A stretch of 24,000 nt of DNA from Sporocytophaga sp. (GTDB lineage Bacteria; Bacteroidota; Bacteroidia; Cytophagales; Cytophagaceae), in contig JANQAB010000002.1 in assembly GCA_024707265.1 (NCBI GenBank), positions 244,188 through 268,187 of the forward strand, in the 5' to 3' direction. The number at the start of each line of letters is the position of its first letter. Within the stretch, counting starts at the first letter, position 1. The position numbers were made by a program, and so were the translations under genes. A model generated the notes under the pieces. That model ran no database searches. It was not told the DNA's origin and worked only from the letters and a program-made list of their open reading frames with translations. This document shows, one piece after another, positions 2,769-24,000 of this stretch.

Positions 2769-2773
2769 ATAAT
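2769..2773. repeat. Putative target-site duplication (ATAAT), left copy
   Basis: ATAAT lies immediately outside the IS21 terminus TCCGGTGAAATTGAGCCA. An identical ATAAT lies immediately outside the other terminus at 5383-5387. Confidence 0.55.
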
Positions 2774-2815
2774 TCCGGTGAAATTGAGCCACCCTTCCGG
2801 CCTAAATTGAGCCAC
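2774..2815. repeat. IS21 istB-proximal terminal repeats (2 copies)
   Basis: TCCGGTGAAATTGAGCCAC (2774-2792) and TTCCGGCCTAAATTGAGCCAC (2795-2815) are reverse complements of the repeat unit found at 5215-5384. Confidence 0.85.
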
Positions 2816-2840
2816 CCTGTTTTGATTTTGCAAAGTTAAT

Positions 2841-3584
2841 TTAGGCAGATTTTTTGGATGATTTAGCTTTTCTTAAAGATTCTCCTTTTAATTCAATTTT
2901 GTGTGCATTGGCTGTCATTCTGTCCATGATAGCGTCAGCGAGTGTAGGTTCTCCAATGTATTCATGCCATTTGTTTACTGGAAGCTGCGATGTTACCATG
3001 ATGGACTTTTTACCATATCTGTCTTCCAGCATTTGTAATAGGGCTAATCTCAGGTTGTTGTCAATCGGCTGCAAGCCGAAGTCGTCGAGAATTATCAGGT
3101 GAACCTTCTCTATCTGATTTAGCATTTTTACGTAAGTGCCTTCAAGTTTTGATTGAGCAATTTTTTCAAGTAACCTTGTCATTCCCATATAAAGTACCTT
3201 ATATCCCATAGCACAGACCTGTCTTCCAAGGGCACAAGCCAGATAGCTTTTGCCACAACCTGTAGCTCCTGTTATCAGAACATTTTCCGCTCTTTCTATA
3301 AAACCGCAGTCAGCCAATATCGCGAGCTTATCGTTGGTAAAGTTTCTTTCCGATGAGCAATGTATCTGCTCCAGAACTGCGTTATACCGCAGTTTGCTGA
3401 GCCTGATATACATTTGTGTTTTCTTATGGGTTCGGTACTGGAGCTCTGCTTCTGCCAGTCTTGCAATAGCTTCATGTAATGATAGCTGTTCATGTATCGG
3501 CATTGATAAGAATGCTTCGTACGCTTTGCCCATTCCTGTAAGCTTTAGATTATAAAGTTGCTCAAGTGTTTGTCTGGTGTTCAT
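2841..3584 (-). CDS. istB: IS21-family helper ATPase IstB
   Basis: 247 aa with Walker A GATGCGKS, Walker B-like LIILDDFG, and the typical IstB N-terminus (LKLTGMGKAYEAFL). It lies directly downstream of istA. Confidence 0.92.
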   Translation of the reverse strand: MNTRQTLEQLYNLKLTGMGKAYEAFLSMPIHEQLSLHEAIARLAEAELQYRTHKKTQMYIRLSKLRYNAVLEQIHCSSERNFTNDKLAILADCGFIERAENVLITGATGCGKSYLACALGRQVCAMGYKVLYMGMTRLLEKIAQSKLEGTYVKMLNQIEKVHLIILDDFGLQPIDNNLRLALLQMLEDRYGKKSIMVTSQLPVNKWHEYIGEPTLADAIMDRMTANAHKIELKGESLRKAKSSKKSA

Positions 3585-3611
3585 TTTAATTGATTTTTAA
3601 TTGGTTTAACA

Positions 3612-5165
3612 TTAATATTCTTTAGGACCTCTGATGTTTTCATGAACAGGTATGGTGATCTGTGATGATGGCTCTTCCTGCTTATCCCTGTTATTGGATA
3701 ATATGTTTTCAATAGTTTTGTATGACAGATATCCGGCATACAGACCTATTCTACAGGCGTTATTTGTACGTTCATTTCCATATTTATCGGCCAGGCGCAA
3801 AAGACCTCTACAGGAAAGAAAGGCTTGTTGAGTAAACTGCCTTGATTCAAGCAGGCCGCTTACCACCTGTAGAAAGTATTCTCCTATAGGTTTGGCCTTT
3901 TGTAAAAAGTAGTCTTTATCCCATCCCAGAGTCTCTTTATATTTGAGGTGACTGGTAGGCATGTGAGTATCTGTAGTTGTGTAACAGTGTTTCTGGTAGT
4001 TCCTTTTATGAGCTGCTATTCTTTTATGATCCAGGTAAACCTCAACTTGTTCGCTGTCATATACAATGGTGGTTTGTTTACCTATGTATTGATAAGGAAC
4101 GCTATAGTAGTGCATGTCCTGTCCTAGCAAGACATGATAGTTCTTCTGCACTTTAGCTCTGACTGAATATTTCACTTCAAAGGCTTGTAGTGGAAGGGGG
4201 TTAAGCAAAGGTTGTTCATCCTGGACAAATCGATCTTTTCTGGAATAATCCTTTTTCTGCATCAAGCAACCATTATGTTTTTCCAAATTCAACTTTATGT
4301 GGTAATTCAACTCTGAGAGGCTATAAACCACGTTGTCTCTTAATGGGGCATAAATACGCTTGTATGCAAGATCTACAGACTTTTCTACACGGGCCTTGTC
4401 TTTAGGCTTTTCCACACGTGTAGCCGACAGGGTGGTGTTATAGAAAACGGAGAACTGTTCTGCAAGGGCAGTAAAGGTTGGTTCATAGCGGTCGCTTTTT
4501 ATCACCATTTGCCTCATGTTATCTGTGAGAATTGAAGCGGGAGCTCCTCCAAAGTATTGCAGACACCGGTTTAATGCTCCCACTAACTGATCAAGGGTAG
4601 CATTATGCAAGGCTTCAACATAGGTATAACCGCTATAGGGCAATACAGCAACGAAAACAGGACATTCTAAGACTTCACCGCTGGTCTTGTCGATATAGGA
4701 AAGTTTCTTTCCCGCAAAGTCAATCTCTAAAACTTCTGCAGGCTTATGCTGTTGTGGCATCACTGCATTGCGAATCTGACTATAGGTATTCAGGTGCTCA
4801 CAAAATTGTTGATAGGAATAGCCGTCAGGATCTTCTCTGCGATATTCTTCCCACAACAACATTCGGGTTACTCCGGTGCGCTTAAGCTCTGAAAGGTAAT
4901 GCCCCAGCTTGGGAGATAAACGACCATACCGTTCATCCTTTCTGCTTTCGATAGCATGATTATAGACAACACTACCCAGAGTATCGTCTGAGAGAGAGAG
5001 TAATTGATTAAAGTCATATCCCGAGGTTTTAAACCGTTTTAAGTAGGTGGCAACTGTATTGCGACTCATGCCAAGTGTATTGGCAATTTGTCGTTCTGAG
5101 AGGCCGGAAATGAGTAATTGTAATAGTCTGCGTATTTGCAACATGGTTTTAGCTTGGTTAGCCAT
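3612..5165 (-). CDS. istA: IS21-family transposase IstA
   Basis: 517 aa with an N-terminal HTH (LSERQIANTLGMSRNTVATYLKRF) followed by a DDE integrase-type core (EIDFAGKKL..., ILTDNMRQ...). Size and pairing with istB are typical of IS21. Confidence 0.92.
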   Translation of the reverse strand: MANQAKTMLQIRRLLQLLISGLSERQIANTLGMSRNTVATYLKRFKTSGYDFNQLLSLSDDTLGSVVYNHAIESRKDERYGRLSPKLGHYLSELKRTGVTRMLLWEEYRREDPDGYSYQQFCEHLNTYSQIRNAVMPQQHKPAEVLEIDFAGKKLSYIDKTSGEVLECPVFVAVLPYSGYTYVEALHNATLDQLVGALNRCLQYFGGAPASILTDNMRQMVIKSDRYEPTFTALAEQFSVFYNTTLSATRVEKPKDKARVEKSVDLAYKRIYAPLRDNVVYSLSELNYHIKLNLEKHNGCLMQKKDYSRKDRFVQDEQPLLNPLPLQAFEVKYSVRAKVQKNYHVLLGQDMHYYSVPYQYIGKQTTIVYDSEQVEVYLDHKRIAAHKRNYQKHCYTTTDTHMPTSHLKYKETLGWDKDYFLQKAKPIGEYFLQVVSGLLESRQFTQQAFLSCRGLLRLADKYGNERTNNACRIGLYAGYLSYKTIENILSNNRDKQEEPSSQITIPVHENIRGPKEY

Positions 5166-5214
5166 AAATTCTTCAGCTTAAAAAGCTGAAGTTACAGTTG
5201 CAAAATCAAAAAAA

Positions 5215-5382
5215 GTGGCTCAGTTTATGCCGGAATGGCAGTTCTTAAAATTGAAAAAATACAAATTTAAGTGGCTCAGTTTGGTCCGGAATTCCCTGAT
5301 TCTTCTACTAAAAAGTGGCTCAGTTTGGTCCGGAATCAGTGGCTCAGTTTAGTCCGGAATTACTGGCTCAATTTAGTCCGGA
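5215..5382. repeat. IS21 istA-proximal terminal repeats (5 direct copies)
   Basis: GTGGCTCAGTTT(A/G)(T/G)(G/T)CCGGAAT-type units begin at 5215, 5271, 5315, 5339 and 5364. The outermost copy abuts the element end. Confidence 0.85.
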
Positions 5383-5387
5383 ATAAT
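5383..5387. repeat. Putative target-site duplication (ATAAT), right copy
   Basis: Identical pentamer to 2769-2773, immediately outside the IS21 terminus ...AATTTAGTCCGGA. Confidence 0.55.
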
Positions 5388-6129
5388 CAGTTTGATCGCA
5401 TAGCACACCTTTTGTTTTATCTACTGGATGTGAATACAACCTTCGATAGTCCATATTATCTTTTGCTCTTGTAACATAGAAAGCATCTGACAAACAAATC
5501 TTGTAAAGCCTTTTGTAATCCACATATCCTCGATCCATAATATAAAAGCTATTAGCTTCAAATGGAATAAGATCCAATACATTTACATCGTGGACAGAAG
5601 CTGTAGAAAAAAGAATGAACTCAGGAATAGATGTTTTTAAATCCAGTTGAGTATGCAGTTTGATACCACTTTTTGTAGATCGAAAAGTAGCCCAATAAAA
5701 GGTAGATAAACACAAATCAATGGTAGTAGAATCTATAGCAAATACGTTGTTTTTAAGCGGTACATCCAATTCAGTATCTCCTAAATATAAATGTTTGGCT
5801 TGTTTTATTAATATCATAGCCAAACCTTCATAAATTTTATAGGAGCGATTTTCATTCGCTTTAGAAAGTGTACTTTTAGCAACAACATCTCCAATACCTA
5901 AGTGATACATTTTATCGGCATTAGCCCTTAAACACATCATCGTATCACTTAAACTTTCACGATGAGTAAGCTGACCAAATGCCATGCAAAGAAATTGTTT
6001 CCAACAACTAAAATCTTTAACCTTATAATCACCATCATAGCGTTTTACAAGGGTCTGAAACTGTTTATGAGAAACAATCTCTATAATTTGTGAGAAAATA
6101 TATCTACCTCGATTCATGATTATTGACAA
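5383..6129 (-). pseudogene. IS4-family (DUF4372 + DDE_Tnp_1 type) transposase, N-terminal two thirds only (about 247 codons), truncated at the IS21 junction
   Basis: The N-terminus RGRYIFSQIIEIVSHKQFQTLVKRYDGDYKVKDFSCWKQFLCMAFGQLTHRESL is typical of Bacteroidota IS4 transposases. DDE residues sit in AIDSTTIDL and FYIMDRGYVDY, and the FYVTRAKDNMDY motif is present. The expected C-terminal third with the catalytic Glu (YKNRWQIELFFK-type motif) is absent, and the ORF runs into IS21 repeat sequence. Confidence 0.8.
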
Positions 6130-12624: not shown

Positions 12625-14757
12625 ATGACGTTTTTGTTTGATATTTCATTGCCATTTAAAGATCCTGTATTAGTATTTTCAGTGGTATTGTTTATCATAT
12701 TCTTTGCACCTATTGTGTTAAAGAAATTCAGAATACCAGGAATTATAGGTCTTATTTTATCAGGGGTGATTGTTGGTCCTAATGGATTTAATTTGTTATT
12801 AAGAAATTCCGGGATTGTTCTTTTCGGTACAGTAGGTCTTTTGTATATAATGTTTCTTGCGGGTCTTGAAATTGACCTTAATGATTTTAAAAAGAACAGA
12901 AATAAAAGCTTGATATTCGGAGCGCTTACCTTTTTCATACCTTTAATATTAGGTACCCTTGCTTCTTATTACCTTTTGCATTTAAATATTCAGGGTTCTG
13001 TTTTACTTGCGAGTATGTTTGCTTCTCATACTTTGGTTTCCTATCCAATAGCAAGTAAACTTGGCCTTACTAAAAAGCAAGCGGTAACCCTTGCAATCGG
13101 TGGTACTATCATTACAGACACTGCTGTACTGTTATTATTGGCTGTTATTACAGGTTCTGTAAGCGGCAACCTGGACACAGACTTCTGGGTGAGATTATCA
13201 GTTTCCCTTGTAATATTCGGGTTTATAGTGCTCTATATTTTTCCAAAAGTTACCAGGTGGTTTTTTAAGAACGTTGAAGGGGATGGAGGAGCACAATACA
13301 TTTTTGTTTTAGGAATGGTATTCGCAGCGGCTTTTTTATCTGAAGTTGCAGGAGTTGAGCCCATTATCGGAGCATTTCTGGCGGGGCTTTCACTCAACAG
13401 GCTTATACCCCATACATCACCATTGATGAATAGAATCGAATTTATCGGCAATACGCTGTTTATTCCGTTTTTCCTTATCAGTGTGGGGATGATTGTAGAT
13501 GTGAAAGTATTATTTAATGGTTATCAGGCTCTTTTTGTCGCTGGCTTATTGATTGTTCTTGCATTATTCAGTAAATGGGCTGCAGCATTTATCACACAGA
13601 AGATATTTAAATTTTCTTCTATGGAAAGAAATTTAATATTCGGATTAAGCAGTTCACACGCCGCCGCAACGCTTGCAGTAATACTTGTTGGTTTTAACCT
13701 GGAACTTTTTGATGAGGCTATACTTAACGGAACAGTACTACTTATTCTTGTTACCTGTATGGTCAGTTCTTTTGTAACGGAGAGCGCAGGAAGAAAGCTG
13801 GCTATTGCTGAATCGAAAGGTGATGGAGTATATCATGAAATAGAAGAAAGAATTTTAATTGCCATAACAAATCCTGCAAGAATTGAAGCCAAGATCGACA
13901 TGGCTGCAATGTTAAAGGAATCGGATAAGTCTCAGCCTATCTATGCTGTTTCGGTAGTGAATGATGATGAGGAAGCAAGAGACAAACTCATTCAGAATAA
14001 GAAGATGGTTGAGAGGGCAGTCAAACATGCAGCTTCTGCAGAGAATAAACTGGAGGTGGTTTCAAGGATCGATCTGAATATTGCAAACGGAATTGCCCGC
14101 GCTGTAAAGGAACTAATGATTACTGAGGTCATTATCGGTTGGCATGAAAAGAATACAACTACTGAGAAGTTGTTTGGTACCGTGCTTGAAAACCTTGTCT
14201 ACCGCACTGATCAGATGGTCGTGGTAGCACATACACTTCAGCCTTTGAATACGATTGGCAAAATTATAGTGATGGTACCGCCAAATGCAGAACTGGAGAT
14301 AGGTTTTAAAAGGTGGATCAATATGGTTAAAAAATTGGCCAAACAGATTAACAGCCAGGTGGTCTTCTTTGGTGTTTCAGAGTCCCTGCAACATTTGAAA
14401 AAAGCAGTAAATGAAACTAAACCGGGAGTCGAGGCTGATTACAGAGGTTTTTCAGATTGGGACGATTTTCCTTTTTTCTCCGGGCAGCTCAAAGATGACG
14501 ATCTCTTCATTGCTATTACTGCGAGGAAGTCAACATTGTCTCACACATTATTTATGGATTCTATTCCAAAGTTATTGCAGAAATTTTTTGTCAAAAATAA
14601 CTTCATGCTTGTTTATCCTGAGCAATTCAGTGAAGATCCTGAAAATAGAAATCTTCAGCTGGATGGAATGACTACATCTTTGATAAGAGAAGACTTACAG
14701 AGATTTAATAAAATTGGTAAGATATTGAAAGGCGTTTTAAAATGGCCTAGGAAGTAA
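12625..14757 (+). CDS. Cation:proton antiporter (CPA2 / Na+/H+ exchanger family) with a roughly 300-aa cytoplasmic C-terminal domain, possibly USP-like
   Basis: 710 aa. The N-terminal 400 aa are polytopic, with typical Na_H_exchanger signatures (IPGIIGLILSGVIVGPNGFNLL, FLAGLEIDL, FLAGLSLN). The C-terminal soluble half follows the USP-like pattern ILIAITNP...VIIGWHEK. Confidence 0.85.
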   Translation: MTFLFDISLPFKDPVLVFSVVLFIIFFAPIVLKKFRIPGIIGLILSGVIVGPNGFNLLLRNSGIVLFGTVGLLYIMFLAGLEIDLNDFKKNRNKSLIFGALTFFIPLILGTLASYYLLHLNIQGSVLLASMFASHTLVSYPIASKLGLTKKQAVTLAIGGTIITDTAVLLLLAVITGSVSGNLDTDFWVRLSVSLVIFGFIVLYIFPKVTRWFFKNVEGDGGAQYIFVLGMVFAAAFLSEVAGVEPIIGAFLAGLSLNRLIPHTSPLMNRIEFIGNTLFIPFFLISVGMIVDVKVLFNGYQALFVAGLLIVLALFSKWAAAFITQKIFKFSSMERNLIFGLSSSHAAATLAVILVGFNLELFDEAILNGTVLLILVTCMVSSFVTESAGRKLAIAESKGDGVYHEIEERILIAITNPARIEAKIDMAAMLKESDKSQPIYAVSVVNDDEEARDKLIQNKKMVERAVKHAASAENKLEVVSRIDLNIANGIARAVKELMITEVIIGWHEKNTTTEKLFGTVLENLVYRTDQMVVVAHTLQPLNTIGKIIVMVPPNAELEIGFKRWINMVKKLAKQINSQVVFFGVSESLQHLKKAVNETKPGVEADYRGFSDWDDFPFFSGQLKDDDLFIAITARKSTLSHTLFMDSIPKLLQKFFVKNNFMLVYPEQFSEDPENRNLQLDGMTTSLIREDLQRFNKIGKILKGVLKWPRK

Positions 14758-14759
14758 CT

Positions 14760-15167
14760 ATGAAAAGGAGCAGGGTATTATATTTCTGTATAATTATAGG
14801 TCTCATTGGCACAGGCCTGGCTGCCCGGAAATGGAAGGTATTTCTTCCAGACTTGGTCAATGTCTATCTTGGTGATGCTATCTGGGCTGCTATGATTTAT
14901 TTCGGGATAGCCTTTATTTTTAACAGAAAAAGTCTAGCACTCATTGCAATACTCTCATTGGTATTTTGCTATTGTATTGAAGTAAGCCAGTTTTATCATG
15001 CGCCTTGGATTGATGCAATAAGAAATACCAGAATAGGCGCTCTGGTCCTTGGTTTTGCATTTTTGTGGAGCGATATTCTGGCTTACACATTGGGAATCGG
15101 TTTATCATTCCTGGGGGAGTATTTCTTTTTTAAGGGAAAAACCGGGGAAGTAAATGCTGTAGCTTAG
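14760..15167 (+). CDS. Small 4-TM membrane protein, DUF2809-like
   Basis: 135 aa, starting 2 nt after the antiporter stop. From memory, motifs GDAIWAAMIYF and IEVSQFYHAPWIDAIRNTRIGALVLG resemble the DUF2809 family. Confidence 0.55.
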   Translation: MKRSRVLYFCIIIGLIGTGLAARKWKVFLPDLVNVYLGDAIWAAMIYFGIAFIFNRKSLALIAILSLVFCYCIEVSQFYHAPWIDAIRNTRIGALVLGFAFLWSDILAYTLGIGLSFLGEYFFFKGKTGEVNAVA

Positions 15168-15274
15168 TGCTACTCAGTGTGATATTCTATACCTCATATT
15201 TTTACAAGGACTTTTTGATTCATTATCGCTATAAACTTTAATGAGTTTTTAGACGTTTCTTTATATGCAAATCT

Positions 15275-15282
15275 TAATTTTG
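15275..15282 (+). promoter_or_regulatory. Candidate Bacteroidota -7 promoter box (TAnnTTTG)
   Basis: TAATTTTG lies 21 nt upstream of the MATE start codon and matches the TAnnTTTG consensus of Bacteroidota sigma-A promoters. No clear -33 TTTG was seen. Confidence 0.3.
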
Positions 15283-15302
15283 CAGCCTTTCATAAGATAA
15301 AT

Positions 15303-16652
15303 ATGATTTTCAGCAGTTGGTTTAGGGGTAACCTAAAGGAATATAAAGATACGTTAAGAATAGCTTATCCGGTAGTGCTCAGTCAATTCGGCCATATATC
15401 AGTGGGGGTGGCAGATAGCATTATGGTTGGAGGATTAGGAAGTATTCCCCTTGCATCGGCCACATTTGCTTTTAGCGTATTTGTTCCATTTATGATGTTT
15501 GCCATTGGTCTTACATATGGGATTTCTCCCTTAGTTGCCAAGGCAGACGGTGAGCAGAACCACGGTGAAATAAGGAAGATTCTGAAACACAGTATTGTAT
15601 TGAATATCATAGCAGCAATATTGCTTTCAGGAGCATTGTTATTTGCTGCTCCCCTTCTTCAATATTTTCAGCAGCCAAAAGAAGTACTTTCCCTGGCGAT
15701 TCCTTTCTTTAAAATCCTGGTATGGTCATTAGTACCTTTGATTTTATTTCAGATCTGGAAACAGTTTGCTGAAGGACTTGCCATTACCAGACAGGCTATG
15801 TATATCACTGTAATTGCCAATGTACTGAACCTGTTGCTTAACTATCTCCTGATTTATGGCCATTATGGATTTCCAGAGCTTGGTACAAATGGTGCCGCAG
15901 TGGCCACCCTTATTGCAAGGATCTTCATGGCTATTTCAATTTTTGTATTTGTTATAAAATATTCCCGAACCAATATCTTCATCAAAAGCCTGCAAAAGAT
16001 TAACTATTCATTGCAGGAGTTTAAAAGATTGTTTAGAGTAAGTATTGCAGTAGGTTCTCAGCTTGCTTTTGAAACAGGAGCATTCGGAATGGCAGCTATT
16101 ATGATTGGCTGGTTGGGTGCTTCAGAAATGGCAGCACATCATATTGCTTTAAATATGGCCGCAGTAAGTTATATGGGTGCAACGGGAATCGGAGCAGCTG
16201 CTACAGTTCGTGTTGGAAATGAATTGGGGAGAAAAGATTATAATGCAGTCCGCAATGCAGGAAAAGCCGCATTTCACCTTGTTGTGATGTATATGAGCTT
16301 CTGTGCATTGGTGTTTATATTGTTCAGACATGATTTGCCCTCGTTTTATATCAATGAAGAATCTATCTGTAAAATGGCTGCATCCCTATTATTGATCAGT
16401 GCATTTTTTCAATTGTCAGATGGTATTCAGGTTGTATACCTTGGAGCGCTTCGTGGGCTGGAAGATGTGAAGATGCCAACAGCTATTGCCTTGCTTGCCT
16501 ATTGGGTTATAGCGTTGCCATTAGGCTATGTGTTCGCATTTATGTTGAATATGGGCGTTGAAGGCGTTTGGTATGGGCTATTGACAGGGCTTACGGTTGC
16601 GGCTTTGTTGCTTTATTACAGGTTTGAGAAGAAGTCGAAGGAGTTGGTGTAG
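15303..16652 (+). CDS. MATE family efflux transporter
   Basis: 449 aa with about 12 TM segments. The N-terminus (LRIAYPVVLSQFGHISVGVADSIMVG) and a second-half repeat (LFRVSIAVGSQLAFETGAFGMAAIMIG) follow the duplicated MatE pattern. Confidence 0.9.
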   Translation: MIFSSWFRGNLKEYKDTLRIAYPVVLSQFGHISVGVADSIMVGGLGSIPLASATFAFSVFVPFMMFAIGLTYGISPLVAKADGEQNHGEIRKILKHSIVLNIIAAILLSGALLFAAPLLQYFQQPKEVLSLAIPFFKILVWSLVPLILFQIWKQFAEGLAITRQAMYITVIANVLNLLLNYLLIYGHYGFPELGTNGAAVATLIARIFMAISIFVFVIKYSRTNIFIKSLQKINYSLQEFKRLFRVSIAVGSQLAFETGAFGMAAIMIGWLGASEMAAHHIALNMAAVSYMGATGIGAAATVRVGNELGRKDYNAVRNAGKAAFHLVVMYMSFCALVFILFRHDLPSFYINEESICKMAASLLLISAFFQLSDGIQVVYLGALRGLEDVKMPTAIALLAYWVIALPLGYVFAFMLNMGVEGVWYGLLTGLTVAALLLYYRFEKKSKELV

Positions 16653-16818
16653 GGGGAAAGAATGTTGTTAATCGATCATAAGTTTAGATATTCAATTCCT
16701 TCGTAAAGAAAAATTTAGATTATAGTTCTACCGTCCTTGATTTTTAATGTCCCTGAATTCTTGAACATGATTGATTTTCTTTTGATTTAGTTCTTTGGAA
16801 CGGAATAAGGGATGGCTG

Positions 16819-18000
16819 TTACACTGATAATCTTTTGTTCACAGCTTCAATCAGTTCAGGAAGTCCATGAGTTTTATTGTTTAATTCTTTTGCTTTTAGA
16901 AATAATTCTTTAGCCTTTTCATAGTTCCCGATATCAAAATAATAAATACCAAGGTTTTTATAGGCATAAGAGTTATTTTGATCTATTTCCATTGATTTAT
17001 CAATATCCTTTAAACCACCTTCTAGATTCCCTAGCTTGATGTGTGCTAATCCTCTATTATTGTAGGCATATGCAAAATCAATATTTAATTTAATTGCCCT
17101 GTTAAAATCAGCTATTGCTTCAGTGTATTTTTCAATTAAATTATAAGTATAACCTCGGTTATTAAGTGAATTAAAATTGTCTGGGTTTAGCTGAAGTGAT
17201 TGATTGTAAAACTCCAGAGCAATGTTATGCTCCCCGAGATATGAATAAGCTAAACCATAATTACTCAGGTCATCTGAGTTTAACTCTTCTAATGATTTTA
17301 ATACAGTCAGTAGGTCGATTGCTCTGGAATAGTTTTTATTGTTGATATAAGCTGCTATTCCCATCCTGATTAAATTGGGATCTGTATTAGTGGGATATAT
17401 TGATTCAAAGACAGCTATTGCTTTATCAAACTCAGATTTGTTACAGAATTCGTATATTTTTAAATACTGGTTGTATGTCTTTTTATATTTTAATAGATTT
17501 TTTAAGCTCTGGCCGTCATTATATATAATCTTTCCATTGTGTAGCTTAATGGGAGTTTTGTGAGGAAGAATGTTATAGAAAAAGTCTGTTATTGAAGAAA
17601 GAAACAACAAGGTTGTGCCGAATTTGATGAAGCCATGAAGTTCGGTTAGGATTAGGATATAAAAGCAAAAAAATGTTGTGAGTAATGAGGCAATAGGTCC
17701 TGCTAAAGTAAAAAGATAATTCCCTAATATAGAATTGTTAGTTTCTTTAGGAACGCATAATCCATACTGCCAAAGTATAGGGTTATATTTAAAGTGGACT
17801 TTTAAGTTTCCAATTTTAAAATGGAATCCTTTGCTTGGATCACCATAAGATCCTATGAAAATTGTATAGTTGCCTTTAAGAAATACTGAACCTGCAATAT
17901 AATGCCCTAATTCGTGAATGGTAGTTGTCAGCACTCTGGTAAATGCAAAGAAAAAGAGTACAGCTAATGTATAGGTAATAATTATTATAATATCGGACAT
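16819..18000 (-). CDS. Membrane HExxH metalloprotease-like domain (site-2-protease/M50-like) fused to C-terminal TPR repeats
   Basis: HELGH lies in or next to the first hydrophobic helix. Further TM segments are followed by NILPHKTP...NDG, reminiscent of the S2P NxxPxxxxDG motif. The C-terminal 200 aa hold several 34-aa TPR units (e.g. AYSYLGEHNIALEFYNQSLQLNPDN, AYNNRGLAHIKLGNLEGGLKDIDKSMEIDQNN). Confidence 0.7.
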   Translation of the reverse strand: MSDIIIIITYTLAVLFFFAFTRVLTTTIHELGHYIAGSVFLKGNYTIFIGSYGDPSKGFHFKIGNLKVHFKYNPILWQYGLCVPKETNNSILGNYLFTLAGPIASLLTTFFCFYILILTELHGFIKFGTTLLFLSSITDFFYNILPHKTPIKLHNGKIIYNDGQSLKNLLKYKKTYNQYLKIYEFCNKSEFDKAIAVFESIYPTNTDPNLIRMGIAAYINNKNYSRAIDLLTVLKSLEELNSDDLSNYGLAYSYLGEHNIALEFYNQSLQLNPDNFNSLNNRGYTYNLIEKYTEAIADFNRAIKLNIDFAYAYNNRGLAHIKLGNLEGGLKDIDKSMEIDQNNSYAYKNLGIYYFDIGNYEKAKELFLKAKELNNKTHGLPELIEAVNKRLSV

Positions 18001-18101
18001 TATATTAAATTATGTTTACTTAAACAATGCGTCTTATTTCAGGAAGGGTTAGGAGAACGAAACTCAGGCGTTGGTTGGTGTTCTTTTTCTGTCCAAAATT
18101 C

Positions 18102-19229
18102 TCAAAGCCCTTGTTCCTTCCAATACCAATCAAATATATCTGTAAACTTTTTCATTTCGTTTTTATCGGTAAGCAATGCAATAGAAAAACTTGGTCGAGC
18201 AGAGATCCTGTCTTGCGGAATAGAAACACCTTTGATAGTATTTAATTTAGCCAGGAGTTCTAGTCGCTTTTCTTCGCTTCCAAATATTGGTCGATTTTTC
18301 ATGTGTTGAAAGTAAATTTCAACGGCGCCATCCGTCCAGATTGCAAAACAAAATCGATTCTCATTTTTAACTTTAACAATTGGAGCTACTGACCCTCTTT
18401 TGCCTACTCCATAGTAGAAAATAGTTTTTGTTGTGTTTATCCAATCTAAAAGTTTTCGTGCTGCTTCTGCTTCTTGTTGTCCTCGCTGATTCTTTAGTTC
18501 TTTGAAGAATGATTCTTCTGTCCAATGTTCTTCTGACCCACGTTGCTTTCCTTTGATGGTTTGAGCATTTGATGTCATACCAATAACCCTTGGTACAAGT
18601 GTTTTTCGGTCTTGTCCTGAGAACTGTTTTATCTCAACACCTAATATTTCTGCGGGCGTCATCTGCTCGTTTAAAAATTCAATAATCCGTTGCAGTTCTT
18701 TTGGAATGGTATCTGCTATTATGAGTAAGCGAATTTTCCCTGCTTTTAAATTGGTTTTTGTGATTTCCCAAAAGTTGTCAGCATCAATTTCGTCTTGCAA
18801 AAAGTCAGTGAGACAATTTAGTGAGTCAATACCTGATTCTTTACAATACTCATCAAACCTATATTTAATTTCTTCAATTGTCCAATAGGAGACAGCGTTT
18901 GCTGCATAGTCCAAAATTTGACCAATTACCTCTCTCCGGATTCGAGTATCTGTTCCTCGTTTTACTTCGACTAAAGTTGGAATGCCGTCTTGATCAATGA
19001 ATAAATGATCTAAACTCCAACGTTGTCCATTAAGTTTTTCATCAGGGACACCAACTTCTCTTGAGATCAAAAGCCATCTTCTTGGTCTTTCAGGATCAAT
19101 CTGGCTACCTGAAATTAGGGCAGGATAATCAGCAAGGAGTTTTTGAAGCACATCTTCTGTCAGATATGCAGCTTCATTCATTTCTACAAGTTGTCCGTTG
19201 TTATCCAGTAAAAAAATTTTATCGTTCAA
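18102..19229 (-). CDS. PD-(D/E)xK nuclease-fold protein (NucS/DUF91-like core) with an uncharacterised C-terminal domain
   Basis: 375 aa. The N-terminal third follows the NucS/DUF91 pattern: LTEDVLQKLLADYPALI, then REVG...LDHLFIDQDGIPTLVEVKRG...EVIGQILDY, i.e. E...D-x13-E-x-K...Q. Confidence 0.6.
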   Translation of the reverse strand: MNDKIFLLDNNGQLVEMNEAAYLTEDVLQKLLADYPALISGSQIDPERPRRWLLISREVGVPDEKLNGQRWSLDHLFIDQDGIPTLVEVKRGTDTRIRREVIGQILDYAANAVSYWTIEEIKYRFDEYCKESGIDSLNCLTDFLQDEIDADNFWEITKTNLKAGKIRLLIIADTIPKELQRIIEFLNEQMTPAEILGVEIKQFSGQDRKTLVPRVIGMTSNAQTIKGKQRGSEEHWTEESFFKELKNQRGQQEAEAARKLLDWINTTKTIFYYGVGKRGSVAPIVKVKNENRFCFAIWTDGAVEIYFQHMKNRPIFGSEEKRLELLAKLNTIKGVSIPQDRISARPSFSIALLTDKNEMKKFTDIFDWYWKEQGL

Positions 19230-19257
19230 TTTTGGTCTTTTTTATTCTTAGTTAGAT

Positions 19258-19476
19258 TTATCTTATACGCAAAAATAGCCAACCGGAACATTTGAGGTAA
19301 CTTTTCTCCTCAAAATTCTGGAATGTTCCTCCCTTGATTCTGTGTGCCCGATATCTGTAAGGATCATAAAAATAGGCAGGTGAATATCCGCTTTTGTTTC
19401 CCTTTTCCCATCTTAAGGCAAATACATCGTCTCTACCTATGAAGAGGGATTTGAATAGATCGAGCTTATCAGACAT
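19258..19476 (-). pseudogene. 72-codon remnant resembling the N-terminus of large primase(AEP)/helicase-type conflict-system proteins
   Basis: From memory, LFKSLFIGRDDVFALRWEKGNKSGYSPAYFYDPYRYRAHRIKGGTFQNFEEKSYL matches the conserved N-terminus (LF.GR.DV(Y/F)A.RWE..GKSGY.P) of roughly 1000-aa Bacteroidota proteins annotated as AEP-primase/DEAD-box helicase. The ORF stops after 72 codons with an unrelated tail (KCSGWLFLRIR). Confidence 0.4.
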
Positions 19477-19569
19477 TTTGGAATCTGTTTTAAATTTCGG
19501 AATCTGTTTTGATTAGTATCTCCCTTCTTTGTGAGTCTGGAATTGTTCAGTTCAAAGCTATTTAATGTG

Positions 19570-19623
19570 ATTGGCTCATAAGTTGAGTCAATTATGAGCC
19601 AATTGAGCCAATTATGAGCCAAT
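19570..19623. repeat. 12-bp perfect inverted repeat plus three tandem (AT)GAGCCAATT units overlapping the 3' end of the 441-aa gene
   Basis: ATTGGCTCATAA (19570-19581) pairs with TTATGAGCCAAT (19592-19603) across a 10-nt loop. ATGAGCCAATT, GAGCCAATT and ATGAGCCAATT then run in tandem to 19623. Confidence 0.7.
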
Positions 19624-20937
19624 TAAAATATAATTTGTGCCTGCACCGATATCACCGGTTCTTTTTAAAACTTTATGCTTTTCCACCAATTCTGTCAAAT
19701 CTCTTGTAGCAGTTGCTTTGGAAACATTATTTAAGATTTGATATTCACTATTGGTAACTCTCCCTTTTTCTTTAACAAATAATAACGCCTTCACCTGCCT
19801 TTCATTCAATCCAAGTTTAACAAGATGATCTTCATTCAGAATATCTTTGATAATCGTAAGCAGAAACCCGCCATCTTGTTCTATCATTTCTGGTTCGGGA
19901 AGTTCTGCTGCTTTGCAACTGTCAATGATCTTGATAGTACCTCTACCCCAGGCGTCAATAAATCCGCCCTTAAAACAAACGTCGGCAATAACGGGGTTTC
20001 TAGGTCTTGAGGCATGAGGGCGCTTTAATGCGTCAAGTGTTAAGCCTTCCGGAAGGAAACCTTCATTCCATATATTGATCTTTTCGTCATAAACCCTGAT
20101 TTGAGTCGGAGCCCCCATATAATTGCGGTGTACCAAAGCATTAAGAATCATCTCACGCATTGCGGCAACTGGATATTCTCTTTTTTCTATGCGATGCATT
20201 CCTTCAAATTCAATTGGTCTAGTTAAAAACTTATGGTTGAGCTGATTTAAAACTGCCTGCAGAAGGACAATTAAATTACCTTCTTCTGTTTCCTGAAATT
20301 TCAGATCTGTATCATCCTTTCCAAAACGGCCAATTTTAACAAAAGTATTGGGATAAAATTTAGCTGGTTCTTTACCAAACAGAATAATGGCGGCTCGTTT
20401 TAACTGTCCATTTTCACTGAGCCTTAGCTTGTCAAACAATTCCGGTAAAGTTAATCCATCATTTTCAGGCAAACGACCGGCTTTCTCAGATGCTTTTAAA
20501 AAAGTATCAACTGTCTTTTCGTTTATGTCGCCAAAGCTTGCACGCTGCTCTATTACATCATCCCATGTTTTTCCAGATTTCTTCAAAAGAAATTCATTCA
20601 GAGAAGCTCCGGTTAATTCTTGTTTGGTACTACCGCTACGGTAATAATATCTACCTCTGACTGAAATAGGAACAGAATACGGATGCGTTTTTATTTCAAT
20701 AAAATACTTTCCTTTTTCTTCATGAAGATTTATTTCAGAAGAAATACCCATTGAGTTCTTGATTTTGTTGGGTATATCATCCATCAGCTTTTTATAATCG
20801 TCAATGCCGACAACTTTTCCAGTATCGTCCTTACCAATAAAAATTACACCACCCTGGGCATTTGCAAATCCGCAAATCCATTTCAGATAATCATCATGCC
20901 AGCTTTGTTTGTATTCAATGTTTTGTTGTTCGGGCAT
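19612..20937 (-). CDS. AlbA_2 (Schlafen-like) + HATPase_c_4 + C-terminal wHTH protein, usually annotated as ATP-binding protein or putative DNA-binding protein
   Basis: The N-terminus EQQNIEYKQSWHDDYLKWICGFANAQGGVIFIGKDDTGKVVGI matches the AlbA_2 signature. The centre, REMILNALVHRNY...IWNEGFLPEGLT...RPRNPVIADVCFKGGFIDAWGRGTIKI, matches HATPase_c_4. The C-terminal NSEYQILNNVSKATATRDLTELVEK is an HTH. Confidence 0.8.
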   Translation of the reverse strand: MPEQQNIEYKQSWHDDYLKWICGFANAQGGVIFIGKDDTGKVVGIDDYKKLMDDIPNKIKNSMGISSEINLHEEKGKYFIEIKTHPYSVPISVRGRYYYRSGSTKQELTGASLNEFLLKKSGKTWDDVIEQRASFGDINEKTVDTFLKASEKAGRLPENDGLTLPELFDKLRLSENGQLKRAAIILFGKEPAKFYPNTFVKIGRFGKDDTDLKFQETEEGNLIVLLQAVLNQLNHKFLTRPIEFEGMHRIEKREYPVAAMREMILNALVHRNYMGAPTQIRVYDEKINIWNEGFLPEGLTLDALKRPHASRPRNPVIADVCFKGGFIDAWGRGTIKIIDSCKAAELPEPEMIEQDGGFLLTIIKDILNEDHLVKLGLNERQVKALLFVKEKGRVTNSEYQILNNVSKATATRDLTELVEKHKVLKRTGDIGAGTNYILIGS

Positions 20938-21044
20938 ATTTAACTATGATTTAAAAATTGTTATGAATGGTTCTTTTTGACTTTTTTCTCATAGAACTAT
21001 ATCTAAGAAATATGTAGTTATTAAATTTTAAAGCTTAACAACAG

Positions 21045-21090
21045 ATCCTCTCTTTAAAGTGGTCGAATTCCACCACTTTAAAGAGAGGAT
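21045..21090 (-). terminator. 19-bp perfect-stem hairpin 3 nt downstream of the 141-aa gene; probable intrinsic terminator
   Basis: ATCCTCTCTTTAAAGTGGT (21045-21063) pairs perfectly with ACCACTTTAAAGAGAGGAT (21072-21090) across an 8-nt loop, CGAATTCC. On the minus strand it is followed by the moderately U-rich CUGUUGUUAAGCUUUAAAAUUU. Confidence 0.5.
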
Positions 21091-21093
21091 TGT

Positions 21094-21519
21094 TTATCCG
21101 AAGTGACTGAATCCTTCTGAAAATCCCAATTCATTATTGAATTGAGATGCTAATATTTCTTTTAGTTCAGGTGATACAAACAAATGTTCTTCCATATATA
21201 TCCAAACTTGCTGGCCTTGTATTTTAATTGAATCAATAATCTCAGGGGAAATTGAATTTTTGATTGTCAATTCATAATAATCATTGAATTCAATCTTTAA
21301 AACTTGATCAATGATCTTCCTTTGTGTTATTCTCAATTGTTCATTTCCTAATTTTTTAAAAACGGACAATAGTTCTTGTTTTATTAGAATATATCCAGGA
21401 CCACTTAATAGAAGCGAAAACTCTCCATCTTGTAAAATTCTAAAATGGTTATCCTTCAGTCTCCATAATTGAATTTGGATAGTATTTTTGTTAGTTACAT
21501 TAATTGGAATATTACTCAT
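21094..21519 (-). CDS. Hypothetical 141-aa cytoplasmic protein
   Basis: A clean ORF, AT-rich, with no TM or signal segment and no recognised motif. It is followed by a strong hairpin. Confidence 0.55.
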   Translation of the reverse strand: MSNIPINVTNKNTIQIQLWRLKDNHFRILQDGEFSLLLSGPGYILIKQELLSVFKKLGNEQLRITQRKIIDQVLKIEFNDYYELTIKNSISPEIIDSIKIQGQQVWIYMEEHLFVSPELKEILASQFNNELGFSEGFSHFG

Positions 21520-21660
21520 TGAACCAAGTAGGTCTTTCTTTTAAAATAGCATTTAACTTAATTAATTATTTGTTCCAATTCAATATATAAGTTTCTCTTC
21601 CTCCTCCTAAAAATATCATTACAAAACAATATTCAAAAATCCTCATTGTGTCCGGCAACT

Positions 21661-21696
21661 AAAAAAGCCCCGAAGTTTATTTCCTCCGGGGCTTTT
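21661..21696 (-). terminator. Rho-independent terminator downstream of lspA (bidirectional-looking)
   Basis: The minus strand reads AAAAGCCCCGgaggaaataaacttCGGGGCTTTTTT. A GC-rich stem (GCCCCG/CGGGGC) is followed by a T6 run, starting about 20 nt after the lspA stop. Confidence 0.7.
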
Positions 21697-21716
21697 GATT
21701 ATACTATATTCTGATA

Positions 21717-22346
21717 TTAATTATTCTCAGCTTTCTCCGTCACTGATTCTTCCTTATCGGCGTCTTTAAAGAATCTTTTCTGCCAGATAAGTATCACCGA
21801 TACCCCAATAAAGATAGCAGCATCAGCGATGTTAAAAATAGGCCAGAATGCATAATGCTCTCCTCCGAATATCGGAATCCACTCCGGTAGTCTGCCTTCC
21901 CAGATATCTATATAAAACATATCTATTACCTGTCCGTGAAACCATGGTGTGCTTGAGCCGTCAGGAGCGTTGTTCAGTAATACACCGTAAAAGGTACTGT
22001 CTATTACATTGCCTATTGCACCTCCAAGTATCAAAGCAATACACCAAAGCATGCCGGGAGCCATGTCTTTTTTTGCAAGGCGATATAAATATACTGAAAT
22101 AGCAACCATCGCAATGATTCTGAACAGGCTTAGAATAAGCTTTCCATAAGGTATACCTAATTCAAAACCGAAAGCCATACCCGGGTTGGTAGTGTAGTAA
22201 AGCTTAAACCAGTCGTCAAAAATTCTGATCTGTCCGGGATAACCAAAGTCCATTTTAAAATGAACCAGAAGTTTTACGATCTGGTCAAGAACAATTACTC
22301 CAAGAGTAAGAAAGTAGTACTTATAGTATTTATATTGAAGGGCCAT
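21717..22346 (-). CDS. lspA: Lipoprotein signal peptidase (signal peptidase II)
   Basis: 209 aa with 4 TM segments and motifs NPGMAFGF, GGAIGNVIDS and FNIADAAI, which carry the two catalytic Asp contexts. It lies 16 nt downstream of ileS, the conserved ileS-lspA arrangement. Confidence 0.9.
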   Translation of the reverse strand: MALQYKYYKYYFLTLGVIVLDQIVKLLVHFKMDFGYPGQIRIFDDWFKLYYTTNPGMAFGFELGIPYGKLILSLFRIIAMVAISVYLYRLAKKDMAPGMLWCIALILGGAIGNVIDSTFYGVLLNNAPDGSSTPWFHGQVIDMFYIDIWEGRLPEWIPIFGGEHYAFWPIFNIADAAIFIGVSVILIWQKRFFKDADKEESVTEKAENN

Positions 22347-22362
22347 GCCTCTTTATAGTTTT

Positions 22363-24000
22363 TTAAAGTTCAATTTTCATTACAAGCTGATGCTCGTCCA
22401 TATCAACAAGCTTGCCATCTTTCAGATTTTCCGTAAGCACAAGTGATAATGCCTGAGTCTCACTGCAGATATATTCTTTATTTGCAAGTAAGGCATTATC
22501 TATCAACTCATCTTTTTTCTGAATGGTGATTTTGATTTTGTCCTGAACCTCGAGTCCCATGTCCTTTCTCATGTTCTGTACTCTGTTCACGACATCTCTT
22601 GCAATACCTTCTTTCTTCAGCTCTTCTGTAATGGTAATGTCAAGGGCAACGGTAACACCATTTTCACTTGCCACTGACCATCCCGGAATATCTTCAGAAG
22701 AAATATCAACATCTTCCAGTGTTATCTGAACGATGTCTCCTGTAAGTTTTATTTTGAAAGCATTTTCTTTCTCCAGTTTCTGAATATCATCCTGAGTCAT
22801 TGCAGTTATCGCAGCTCCCACTTCTTTTAATCTCGGCCCATATTCTTTCCCCAGTTTCTTGAAGTTAGGCTTGATTTTCTTCACTACAACACCTGAAGTA
22901 TCTTCGATGTATTCGATCTTCTTGATGTTAACCTCAGAAAGGATCAGGTCTTCAACGGCAACTATCCTGTTTTTGTATTCCTGATTCAATACCGGGATCA
23001 ATAACCTTGAAAGTGGCTGTCTTACTTTTATGGTATGACCTTTTCTTAAAGAGTGCACAAGAGATGAAATTCTCTGTGCCAATGACATTCTTTCTTCAAG
23101 ATCTAAATCAATCTGCTTGTCATCTGCAACAGGGAATTGGCTTAAATGGATACTTGCAACTTTTTCTTTTCCACTTACTTCATTCAGATCAAGGAATATT
23201 TTCTCTGAATAGAACGGTGCTATAGATGCAGATAGTTTTGCAATTGTCAAAAGACAAGTATAAAGTGTCTGATACGCAGCAATCTTATCTTCATTGTATT
23301 CGCCTTTCCAGAAACGTTTTCTGTTAAGACGAACGTACCAGTTACTCAGATCATCAACCACAAAGTCCTGGATCTCTCGGCCTGCTTTTGTTGGCTCATA
23401 TTCAGCATAGGCTTCATCCACTTTCTTAATAAGGGTATTAAGCCTTGAAATGACCCATCTGTCGCTTTCTGTTCTCTTATTCAGAGGAACTTCAGCTTCT
23501 TTAAAGGTAAAGTTGTCCAGATTTGAATACAGTGCAAAGAAGGAATACGTGTTTTGAAGTGTTCCGAAGAATCTTCTCTGAACTTCAGTTACCCCGTCAA
23601 TATTGAATTTCAGGTTGTCCCAAGGTGGTGCGTTAACGATCATATACCATCTGGTAGCGTCTGGTCCGAACTGACCGATGGTCTCAAATGGGTTGATAAC
23701 GTTACCAACTCTTTTAGACATCTTTGCACCGTTTTTGTCCAACACAAGGCCATTGGCTATTACATTTTTAAATGCAACGGAGTCTTTCAACATCACTGCT
23801 ATTGCGTGAAGTGTAAAGAACCATCCTCTTGTCTGGTCAACCCCTTCAGCGATAAAGTCTGCAGGAAAGTTATTGTCAAATACATCCTTATTTTCAAACG
23901 GATAATGCCACTGTGCATAAGGCATAGCTCCGGAATCAAACCAAACGTCGATCAGGTCAGTCTCACGGATCATCGGTTTGCCCGATTCACTTATCAGTAC
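22363..24000 (-). CDS. ileS: Isoleucine--tRNA ligase, C-terminal part; the gene continues beyond the window edge
   Basis: The frame is open to position 24000 (VLISESGKPMIRETDLIDVWFDSG...). It carries the class-I KMSKS motif as KMSKRVGN, and the long C-terminal anticodon-binding and extension region is typical of type-2 IleRS in Bacteroidota. Confidence 0.95.
   Translation of the reverse strand, partial: VLISESGKPMIRETDLIDVWFDSGAMPYAQWHYPFENKDVFDNNFPADFIAEGVDQTRGWFFTLHAIAVMLKDSVAFKNVIANGLVLDKNGAKMSKRVGNVINPFETIGQFGPDATRWYMIVNAPPWDNLKFNIDGVTEVQRRFFGTLQNTYSFFALYSNLDNFTFKEAEVPLNKRTESDRWVISRLNTLIKKVDEAYAEYEPTKAGREIQDFVVDDLSNWYVRLNRKRFWKGEYNEDKIAAYQTLYTCLLTIAKLSASIAPFYSEKIFLDLNEVSGKEKVASIHLSQFPVADDKQIDLDLEERMSLAQRISSLVHSLRKGHTIKVRQPLSRLLIPVLNQEYKNRIVAVEDLILSEVNIKKIEYIEDTSGVVVKKIKPNFKKLGKEYGPRLKEVGAAITAMTQDDIQKLEKENAFKIKLTGDIVQITLEDVDISSEDIPGWSVASENGVTVALDITITEELKKEGIARDVVNRVQNMRKDMGLEVQDKIKITIQKKDELIDNALLANKEYICSETQALSLVLTENLKDGKLVDMDEHQLVMKIEL

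Follow-up and report, generated by a model that had tools for sequence, protein, structure and literature searches.

A variable slot between a MATE exporter gene and lspA in Sporocytophaga carries a candidate single-gene nuclease related to Madara/PDC-S11

We analyzed a 24,000-nucleotide (nt) stretch of DNA from a Sporocytophaga species (the window; GenBank assembly GCA_024707265.1, contig JANQAB010000002.1, positions 244,188 to 268,187), in which five minus-strand open reading frames (ORFs) lie between a MATE exporter gene and lspA. They encode a 393-amino-acid (aa) membrane protein with an HExxH motif and tetratricopeptide repeats (TPR), a 375-aa PD-(D/E)xK nuclease, a truncated primase-helicase, a 441-aa AlbA_2/HATPase_c_4/helix-turn-helix (HTH) protein, and a 141-aa protein. 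The gap between the two housekeeping genes is a true variable slot and is accessory, not core. By analogy with the defense protein Madara (PDC-S11), the 375-aa nuclease is a probable single-gene, type IV-like restriction enzyme. The explanation that we favor for the locus as a whole, with a probability of roughly 0.65, is a recombination hotspot that holds one probable restriction variant of this kind together with unrelated or decayed conflict genes. An original prediction, made from the letters of the window, had read the five units as a defense island that might contain one-gene or two-gene immunity systems. The variable slot and a single-gene immunity candidate stand, and the proposed pairing of the nuclease with the TPR protein falls. 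The rest of the cluster is unrelated or decayed; for the HExxH-TPR, AlbA_2, and 141-aa proteins in particular, a role in defense is only suggested.

A nuclease module shared with PDC-S11 and a different C-terminal domain

The 375-aa protein matches two of the eight PADLOC hidden Markov models (HMMs) for PDC-S11 (PDLC04916, E value of 1.8e-16 over residues 12 to 252; PDLC04915, 5.7e-12). Both matches are partial and concern the first ~220 residues only. This supports the idea that the cluster holds a single-gene immunity candidate; the PADLOC matches of the TPR protein are weak and fall on the repeats only. No Pfam domain was found in the 375-aa protein. Four residues, D74, D79, E88, and K90, are invariant in 54 homologues (D74/D79...E88-x-K90), and the nuclease residues align with the ID...ELK motif of canonical PDC-S11. 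An AlphaFold2 (AF2) model with a predicted local distance difference test score (pLDDT) of 83.5 gave NucS/EndoMS structures as its top Foldseek matches (5gke and 2vld, probability of 0.97 to 1.0), followed by the Shedu nuclease SduA.

The protein is laid out as a nuclease module (residues 1 to ~220) and a C-terminal domain (residues 234 to 375, pLDDT of 96). A canonical PDC-S11 protein from a Thermoanaerobaculia genome, used as a comparator, matched all eight models (E value of 1e-116) and DUF4268 (6.6e-31). When we aligned the 375-aa protein to canonical PDC-S11 with hhalign, the match (E value of 2.9e-5) covered residues 25 to 189 only. For the C-terminal 145 aa, we found no Pfam match at E values of ≤0.1, and the isolated domain had no significant Foldseek match in PDB or BFVD. 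DR2400/DUF419 was the best Foldseek match (probability of 0.66, TM score of 0.40); it was not significant. The profile of the nuclease family had no sequence match in PDB, and no match to the nuclease was found in phage genomes. Because the alignment is limited to the nuclease module and the C-terminal domain is not DUF4268, we have filed the 375-aa protein as a sister family, with the PDC-S11 nuclease module and a different second domain, and not as a member of PDC-S11.

PDC-S11 is Madara, a PADLOC candidate system that was validated in Escherichia coli ECOR34. Madara, a modification-dependent, type IV-like restriction enzyme, combines in one polypeptide a NucS-like nuclease and, at the C terminus, an EVE-like domain that putatively senses modifications. 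T4 with glucosyl-hydroxymethylcytosine is restricted by Madara but T4(C) is not, the D63A mutation abolishes the activity, and the gene adjoins the bacteriophage exclusion (BREX) system; its authors note the resemblance to NucS (bioRxiv 10.64898/2026.09.05.749240). The DUF4268-bearing proteins MdgA and MdgB defend against T4 but not T4-GT7, and purified MdgA degrades T4 DNA far more readily than T4-GT7 DNA (PMC12366544). MdgA may be of the same kind as PDC-S11/Madara.

Like Madara, the 375-aa protein is the product of a single gene (~360 to 380 aa) that lacks a conserved partner. It has a homologous N-terminal module that keeps the D...ExK residues, then a linker and a C-terminal domain. Its distribution is patchy, which points to horizontal transfer, and some of its homologues adjoin BREX. 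Unlike in Madara, its C-terminal 140 residues are not DUF4268/EVE-like and cannot be aligned to canonical PDC-S11. If the analogy holds, DNA cleavage by the N-terminal module would follow when the C-terminal domain binds a feature that marks the DNA as foreign, most probably a modified base. Sensing of a modification here is pure analogy because the C-terminal domain differs from DUF4268 and lacks a recognizable fold. Since this domain is not the DUF4268/EVE-like domain of Madara, the target feature would be expected to differ from Madara's. Of all the components of the cluster, the nuclease would be the only one with a credible, currently functional role in immunity.

The nuclease family is widespread and has no recurrent partner

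More than 7,700 homologues of the 375-aa protein were found, in a family that is unnamed and uncharacterized. Relatives occur in at least 509 species in Bacteroidota, Planctomycetota, Chloroflexota, Bacillota, and Methanothrix, and identity across this range is still 46 to 55%. The gene was not found in 40 related genomes, including those of four congeners, and is present as a single copy in its own genome. At the DNA level, similarity to the closest homologues (72 to 76%) stops within ~20 nt of the nuclease gene. We clustered 500 neighboring ORFs from 78 homologue loci and found no partner family that recurs beyond one lineage; no neighbor family occurs in more than 9 of the 78 loci, and those are mostly of the Methanothrix lineage. 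Without a recurrent neighbor family, the nuclease would act alone, if it acts at all.

Some homologues lie close to known defense genes. About 18 to 20 of 116 immediate neighbors (a count from family tallies, with no background rate) match PADLOC models, among them PDC-S02, PDC-S11, REase_II, ZacA, DrmC, mREase_IV, AbiEi, PglX, and others. We regard an enrichment of the homologues near defense genes as suggestive. On the Sinorhizobium plasmid pSS05631d, a homologue with 35% identity is located between repC and a BREX type 1 operon (brxL, pglZ, and pglX; locus L120, 7001 to 15095), an arrangement that mirrors the pairing of Madara with BREX. An 86%-identical homologue is followed by a PglX fragment, and an 81%-identical one lies among DUF4357, DUF433/PIN pair, Fic, and HNH genes. 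Another plasmid homologue is surrounded by HNH, VapB, recombinase, and Tn7-like genes.

In a Thermoanaerobaculia metagenome-assembled genome (JBDTQT010000022.1; locus L100, 10001 to 12328), a member of the family has a canonical, DUF4268-bearing PDC-S11 gene directly downstream on the same strand. This tandem suggests two sensor variants that are distinct and complementary, not redundant. We propose tentatively, at a little under even odds, that the family consists of single-gene restriction-like nucleases in which the Madara-type module is joined to a new C-terminal sensor that has no solved structural relative and reads a DNA modification, or some other mark of foreign DNA, different from that of DUF4268, the two kinds being complementary. 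Such complementarity would explain their tandem occurrence in one genome. More broadly, the specificity of modification-dependent nucleases lies in exchangeable sensor domains, and immunity of this kind to phages whose DNA is modified is widespread. The locus directs attention to a sister family of Madara/PDC-S11 that is very common yet unannotated. Knowing what its C-terminal domain binds would enlarge the repertoire of readers of modified bases, which have uses as tools too.

The MATE-lspA gap differs in every species of the genus compared

Our ORF calls placed the five minus-strand units exactly where the original prediction had drawn them, and HMM scans reproduced every domain call. The MATE gene and lspA (signal peptidase II) are convergent and the slot is the gap between their two 3′ ends; ileS lies beyond lspA on the minus strand. 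T9SS-type genes nearby and the closest homologues fit an origin in Bacteroidota. We compared this gap with that of four other species of the genus (G001 to G004), each of which has the MATE gene and lspA on one contig. The gap is 795 bp long in G001, where it carries a gene for a 143-aa membrane protein, and 1,232 bp in G003, with a gene for a UPF0167 protein and a short ORF. In G002, the gap of 1,638 bp codes for a 180-aa relative of the G001 protein and for a 142-aa C-terminal fragment of the AlbA_2/HATPase_c_4/HTH protein. G004 has a gap of 5,414 bp filled by three genes: those for the 141-aa protein (91% identical) and the 441-aa protein (96%) and one, intact, for a 995-aa AEP-TOTE primase fused to a superfamily 2 (SF2) helicase. 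In the window, the gap of 5,064 bp contains the five units. Thus, five congeneric genomes show five distinct states of the slot.

The borders of the slot are sharp. On the left, synteny with each of the four congeners is lost right behind the stop codon of the MATE gene (blastn alignments end at 16650 to 16653). On the right, the congener alignments restart at 21608 to 21660, 0 to 55 nt past the lspA terminator. Searches of relatives came up empty for the 375-aa, TPR, and 141-aa genes in nearly every case. These data agree with the view that the region is accessory; the cargo differs between MATE and lspA in the four congeners.

The five units had also been described as visibly more AT-rich than their flanks. 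This is true of the comparison with the flanking genes (GC content of 0.340 for the cluster versus ~0.40), but it is not exceptional for the genome (6.76 Mb, 36.5% GC), in which 15 to 20% of windows of the same size have equally low GC. Within the cluster, only the TPR gene (z score of −2.2) and the 141-aa gene (−3.2) are GC outliers, and synonymous codon usage is ordinary for all cluster genes. The AT-richness is therefore a real yet weak cue.

HMM scans found no integrase among the cluster ORFs, and a tRNA search found none. Direct or inverted repeats of ≥9 nt were absent from the borders of the slot and from those of the genome-specific block described below, in line with the earlier report that integrase and flanking direct repeats were missing. 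Because integrase, tRNA, and border repeats are all lacking, we infer that exchange probably took place by recombination through the conserved flanks. The slot is best explained as a chromosomal hotspot in which accessory "conflict" genes are gained, truncated, and replaced.

Defense hotspots flanked by core genes, with variable defense cargo between conserved housekeeping genes, are known in Pseudomonas and E. coli. The slot resembles them in its conserved convergent anchors, its sharp borders, cargo that differs in close species, gene fragments left by turnover, and the lack of a dedicated integrase. It differs from them in being small (0.8 to 5.4 kb) and in that only one of its cargo genes is linked by homology to a validated defense system.

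A 2.6-kb block has replaced most of a primase-helicase gene

The intact 995-aa protein of G004 (locus L011, 2083 to 5070) explains the origin of the third unit, which the original prediction had correctly recognized as a truncated primase/helicase remnant. The G004 protein matches PF22548 (AEP-TOTE) with an E value of 1.7e-86 as well as ResIII and Helicase_C; no Pfam match was found in its C-terminal 295 residues. Codons 1 to 64 of the 72-codon stub are 89% identical to it and are followed by eight unrelated codons and a stop codon. When we searched the window with the 995-aa protein by tblastn, only residues 1 to 64 aligned (19476 to 19285), and no further fragments of the gene were found.

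The DNA alignment to G004 gives the same picture. Positions 14734 to 16653 and 19286 to 22890 of the window align to G004, and 16654 to 19285 do not. The right-hand segment is 92.5% identical and ends inside codon 62 to 64 of the AEP gene. The position that the 3′ 2.96 kb of the gene takes up in G004 is filled here by a 2.6-kb block (16654 to ~19290); we found no second copy of this block in the window's own genome. Because identity to G004 stops inside codon 62 to 64 and the window holds no other fragment of the gene, the stub is the 5′ leftover of a replacement by the 2.6-kb block and not the product of slow decay. The 141-aa gene, the AlbA_2/HATPase_c_4/HTH gene, and the primase-helicase gene, which are shared with G004, would be the older residents; the incoming block overwrote the last of these beyond its first 64 codons. 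The AlbA_2 fragment in G002 shows that genes have been lost at this slot in other lineages too. The locus is a clean natural example of in-place turnover of accessory genes between two housekeeping genes with no visible mobility machinery: a second conflict gene has overwritten the first, and a sister species, G004, retains the ancestral arrangement intact.

The primase domain invites comparison with TOTE conflict systems, whose name stands for TPR, OB, TBP, and Effector (Aravind, Iyer et al. 2022, as cited in bioRxiv 10.1101/2025.09.15.676423). TOTE systems are defined by their partners, a TPR-OB (cold-shock) fusion protein and a homologue of the TATA-binding protein (TBP). The Pfam match of both genes, the stub and its intact G004 counterpart, is to AEP-TOTE, and in G004 this domain is fused to an SF2 helicase. 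However, only 64 codons are left in the window, and the TPR protein found here is a membrane HExxH protein that was brought in with the replacing block. Pfam scans found no CSD/OB or TBP domain in the five cluster ORFs. Among the ORFs listed for the G004 slot, of which only three are gene sized and on the correct strand, there is no TPR-OB or TBP gene. AEP-TOTE is present in 3 of 41 genomes.

The other residents of the slot

The 393-aa protein has hydrophobic segments at residues 3 to 21 and 99 to 125 and carries the motifs HELGH (residue 29), NILP (residue 143), and DG (residue 162). As in M50/site-2 proteases (S2P), the HExxH motif lies in the first hydrophobic segment and is followed later by NxxP...DG in a hydrophobic region, and some homologues of the 393-aa protein match Peptidase_M50B. 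Unlike in these proteases, the spacer between NxxP and DG is long, a TPR array is fused to the domain in place of PDZ or CBS, and the Pfam score is below threshold (Peptidase_M50, 18.5 bits against a cutoff of 27.2). The 393-aa protein was found in 1 of 40 relatives. Its N-terminal protease-like domain has eight detectable homologues; precomputed annotations assign PF13398 to two of them and PF02163 in addition to one. Their neighbors are unrelated genes and include LexA/ImuB/DnaE2 genes, a sigma factor with a TonB receptor, and a DUF3885/DUF1963/NERD cluster. The HExxH-TPR protein would thus be an independent, rare site-2-protease-like gene product and not a partner of the nuclease.

Two Logan contigs (SRR30854908 and SRR30854911; loci L022 and L023) carry a homologue of the HExxH-TPR protein within a series of small accessory genes (NERD, DUF3885, DUF1963, and another TPR protein). 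DUF3885 and DUF1963 are immunity-protein families of polymorphic toxin systems.

The 441-aa protein is of the COG2865 type and would be a Schlafen-like DNA- or RNA-binding regulator or sensor. It is patchily distributed (11 of 41 genomes), is 96% identical in G004, and survives in G002 as the 142-aa fragment. It matches PHROG 12156 (E value of 3e-71). It is not generally linked to AEP-TOTE, and G024, one of the three genomes with AEP-TOTE, has no match to it.

The 141-aa protein belongs to a small family with 192 representatives at E values of ≤1e-3. HMM scans gave no family match for the window's own protein, a word-indexed homologue search returned only the protein itself, and the family was found in none of 400 sampled genomes of the phylum. 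Imm11 (PF07791) is matched by 2 of 46 family members (best E value of 3.7e-5) and Imm43 (PF15570) by 1 of 46 (5.6e-4), all weakly, and neither is matched by the window's own protein. From these family-level matches, a distant relationship to Imm11/Imm43 is possible, and the 141-aa protein might be an orphaned immunity protein of the Imm11-like kind.

Repeats, hairpin, and promoter motifs

The original prediction had mentioned unusual repeats between the units, and these are real: three copies of TTATGAGCCAAT and a 19-bp tandem duplication. The TTATGAGCCAAT copies overlap the stop codon of the 441-aa gene and are conserved in G004. They may have served as the operator/promoter of the primase-helicase gene that is now lost, or they may terminate the 441-aa gene. 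We also considered the GAGCCAAT repeat cluster as a dispersed element and rejected this since the inverted-repeat arrangement is unique in the genome. The 19-bp duplication, which is a single copy in G004, is a small slippage-type change in the orphaned leader of the stub. The 19-bp hairpin said to close the 141-aa gene also proved genuine, with a stem of 19 to 23 bp; in G004, the stem is conserved in its inner part only.

A pattern scan for TAnnTTTG, which occurs ~0.6 times per kb per strand in the window and was called by consensus match only, placed TATTTTTG upstream of the nuclease, just inside the inserted block, and TAGCTTTG next to the TTATGAGCCAAT copies. The nuclease might be read both from its own putative −7 box and from the orphaned promoter and operator-like repeats of the primase-helicase gene upstream.

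Alternative explanations

We weighed three other explanations for parts of the cluster. The nuclease and the HExxH-TPR membrane protease could form a two-gene immunity system, as the original prediction had offered as an example, in which the TPR array senses and the protease signals or activates. The genes are adjacent, co-oriented, and 101 nt apart within the same 2.6-kb genome-specific block, and TPR proteins do belong to some conflict systems, TOTE included. However, none of 80 nuclease-family loci has an S2P-TPR gene within 10 kb, and no partner family recurs outside one lineage. For the closest homologues, DNA similarity reaches no further than the nuclease gene itself, the eight protease homologues sit beside unrelated genes, and the PADLOC matches of the TPR protein are confined, weakly, to its repeats. 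The pairing is unique to the window's genome; it is rejected as a conserved system, the claim being largely refuted, and we give a functional two-gene system hardly any credence. It is also very unlikely, if slightly less so, that the 375-aa protein is a housekeeping or repair nuclease, that is, a mismatch or recombination nuclease of the NucS/EndoMS type. NucS/EndoMS is a mismatch endonuclease of archaea and actinobacteria; these repair enzymes are the best structural matches and share the fold of the nuclease domain, and the immediate neighbors of the homologues are mostly housekeeping genes. The 375-aa protein differs from NucS/EndoMS in having no significant sequence match to solved structures and in its domain order and accessory domains. 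Against a repair role, the relatives at the sequence level are the PDC-S11 defense models. The distribution of the gene is accessory and not core, as it is missing from the 40 relatives searched and occurs once, in a variable slot. Members with ~50% identity are spread over bacterial phyla and methanogenic archaea, some of them on plasmids, and homologues stand beside BREX, a PglX fragment, canonical PDC-S11, and restriction and toxin-antitoxin genes.

The older part of the cluster (the 141-aa, AlbA_2/HTH, and primase-helicase genes) could instead be a decayed integrated mobile element, with the nuclease as a later passenger. The PrimPol-helicase would then be a replicase and the AlbA_2/HTH protein its regulator, and neither would be a defense gene. 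Homologues of the G004 primase-helicase (~34% identity over residues 4 to 723) are common on plasmids. One is on an E. coli plasmid in a replication-type module (AlpA - YfjI - Gp2-like), another is beside Tn7-like tniQ/tniB, and PHROG helicase and primase families match the protein. The TOTE partners TPR-OB and TBP are missing from the window and are not among the listed ORFs of the G004 slot, and operator-like repeats beside a promoter motif would fit a replicase under the control of a repressor. However, there is no integrase, att-like repeat, or tRNA, the G004 slot contains three genes only, and the AEP domain matches a Pfam family specific to conflict systems very strongly (E value of 1.7e-86). 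We consider a mobile-element origin unlikely, if still a live alternative; it is compatible with the hotspot model and with the assignment of the nuclease.

Several points weigh against our preferred explanation, a recombination hotspot with one probable restriction-like nuclease. The best PADLOC match spans 58% of the model, and PADLOC might not call the gene. The C-terminal domain of the nuclease is not DUF4268 and has no recognizable fold. The neighbors of the homologues are housekeeping genes for the most part, as noted above. The mode of exchange is deduced from the absence of mobility genes, and the promoter assignments are consensus matches only. Finally, an IS21-family insertion sequence (IS) lies 11 kb away, and TGGCTCAATT, the 10-nt core of its end repeats (2782 to 2814 and 5364 to 5373), recurs once at 19601 to 19610, within the TTATGAGCCAAT cluster. 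This recurrence is probably due to chance, since that site lacks the remainder (CCGGAAT) of the 22-bp IS21 repeat.

Feature coordinates and insertion sequences in the window

Table 1. Features of the MATE-lspA slot and its anchors, in window positions
Feature	Position	Strand	Evidence or remark
MATE exporter gene, left anchor	15303..16652	+	PF01554, E 1.5e-60; 92-96% identical in G001-G004
Genome-specific 2.6-kb block (HExxH-TPR gene and nuclease gene)	16654..19290	-	No alignment to G004
393-aa polytopic membrane protein, S2P-like motifs and C-terminal TPR array	16819..18000	-	TPR_1/2/8, E down to 5e-26
375-aa NucS-like PD-(D/E)xK nuclease, TTG start	18102..19229	-	PADLOC PDC-S11 match, motif, AF2/Foldseek
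72-codon AEP-TOTE primase-helicase stub	19258..19476	-	PF22548, E 4e-13, profile positions 1-61 of 230
TAnnTTTG motif TATTTTTG (Bacteroidota-type -7 box by consensus)	19270..19277	-	48 nt upstream of nuclease start
19-bp tandem duplication (two 17-nt copies), directly upstream of stub ATG	19475..19510	.	Single copy in G004
TAnnTTTG motif TAGCTTTG	19560-19553	-	Immediately downstream of TTATGAGCCAAT copies, 84 nt before primase stub
Three perfect TTATGAGCCAAT copies, one inverted, two direct	19570..19623	-	Fold -24.5 kcal/mol, z -6.9
441-aa AlbA_2 (Schlafen-like)/HATPase_c_4/C-terminal HTH protein, COG2865 type	19612..20937	-	SLFN_AlbA_2, E 2e-16; HATPase_c_4, E 1.8e-20
Long hairpin, 3 nt past 141-aa stop codon	21045..21090	-	19-23 bp stem, -34.9 kcal/mol, z -7.9
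141-aa protein, small unnamed family, most AT-rich cluster gene	21094..21519	-	GC 0.28, z -3.2
lspA terminator	21663..21696	-	Hairpin/fold scan
lspA (signal peptidase II), right anchor	21717..22346	-	PF01252, E 1.8e-34; 93-100% identical in congeners

The IS21-family element lies in the region from 2770 to 6129 of the window, with IstA at 3612 to 5165 and IstB at 2841 to 3584. Multiple copies of its 22-bp terminal repeat (GTGGCTCAgTTTrgTCCGGAAT) are found at 2782 to 2814 and 5216 to 5373. A truncated IS4-like transposase gene (DUF4372 and DDE_Tnp_1, 5368 to 6129) appears to have been the target of its insertion or to lie next to it.

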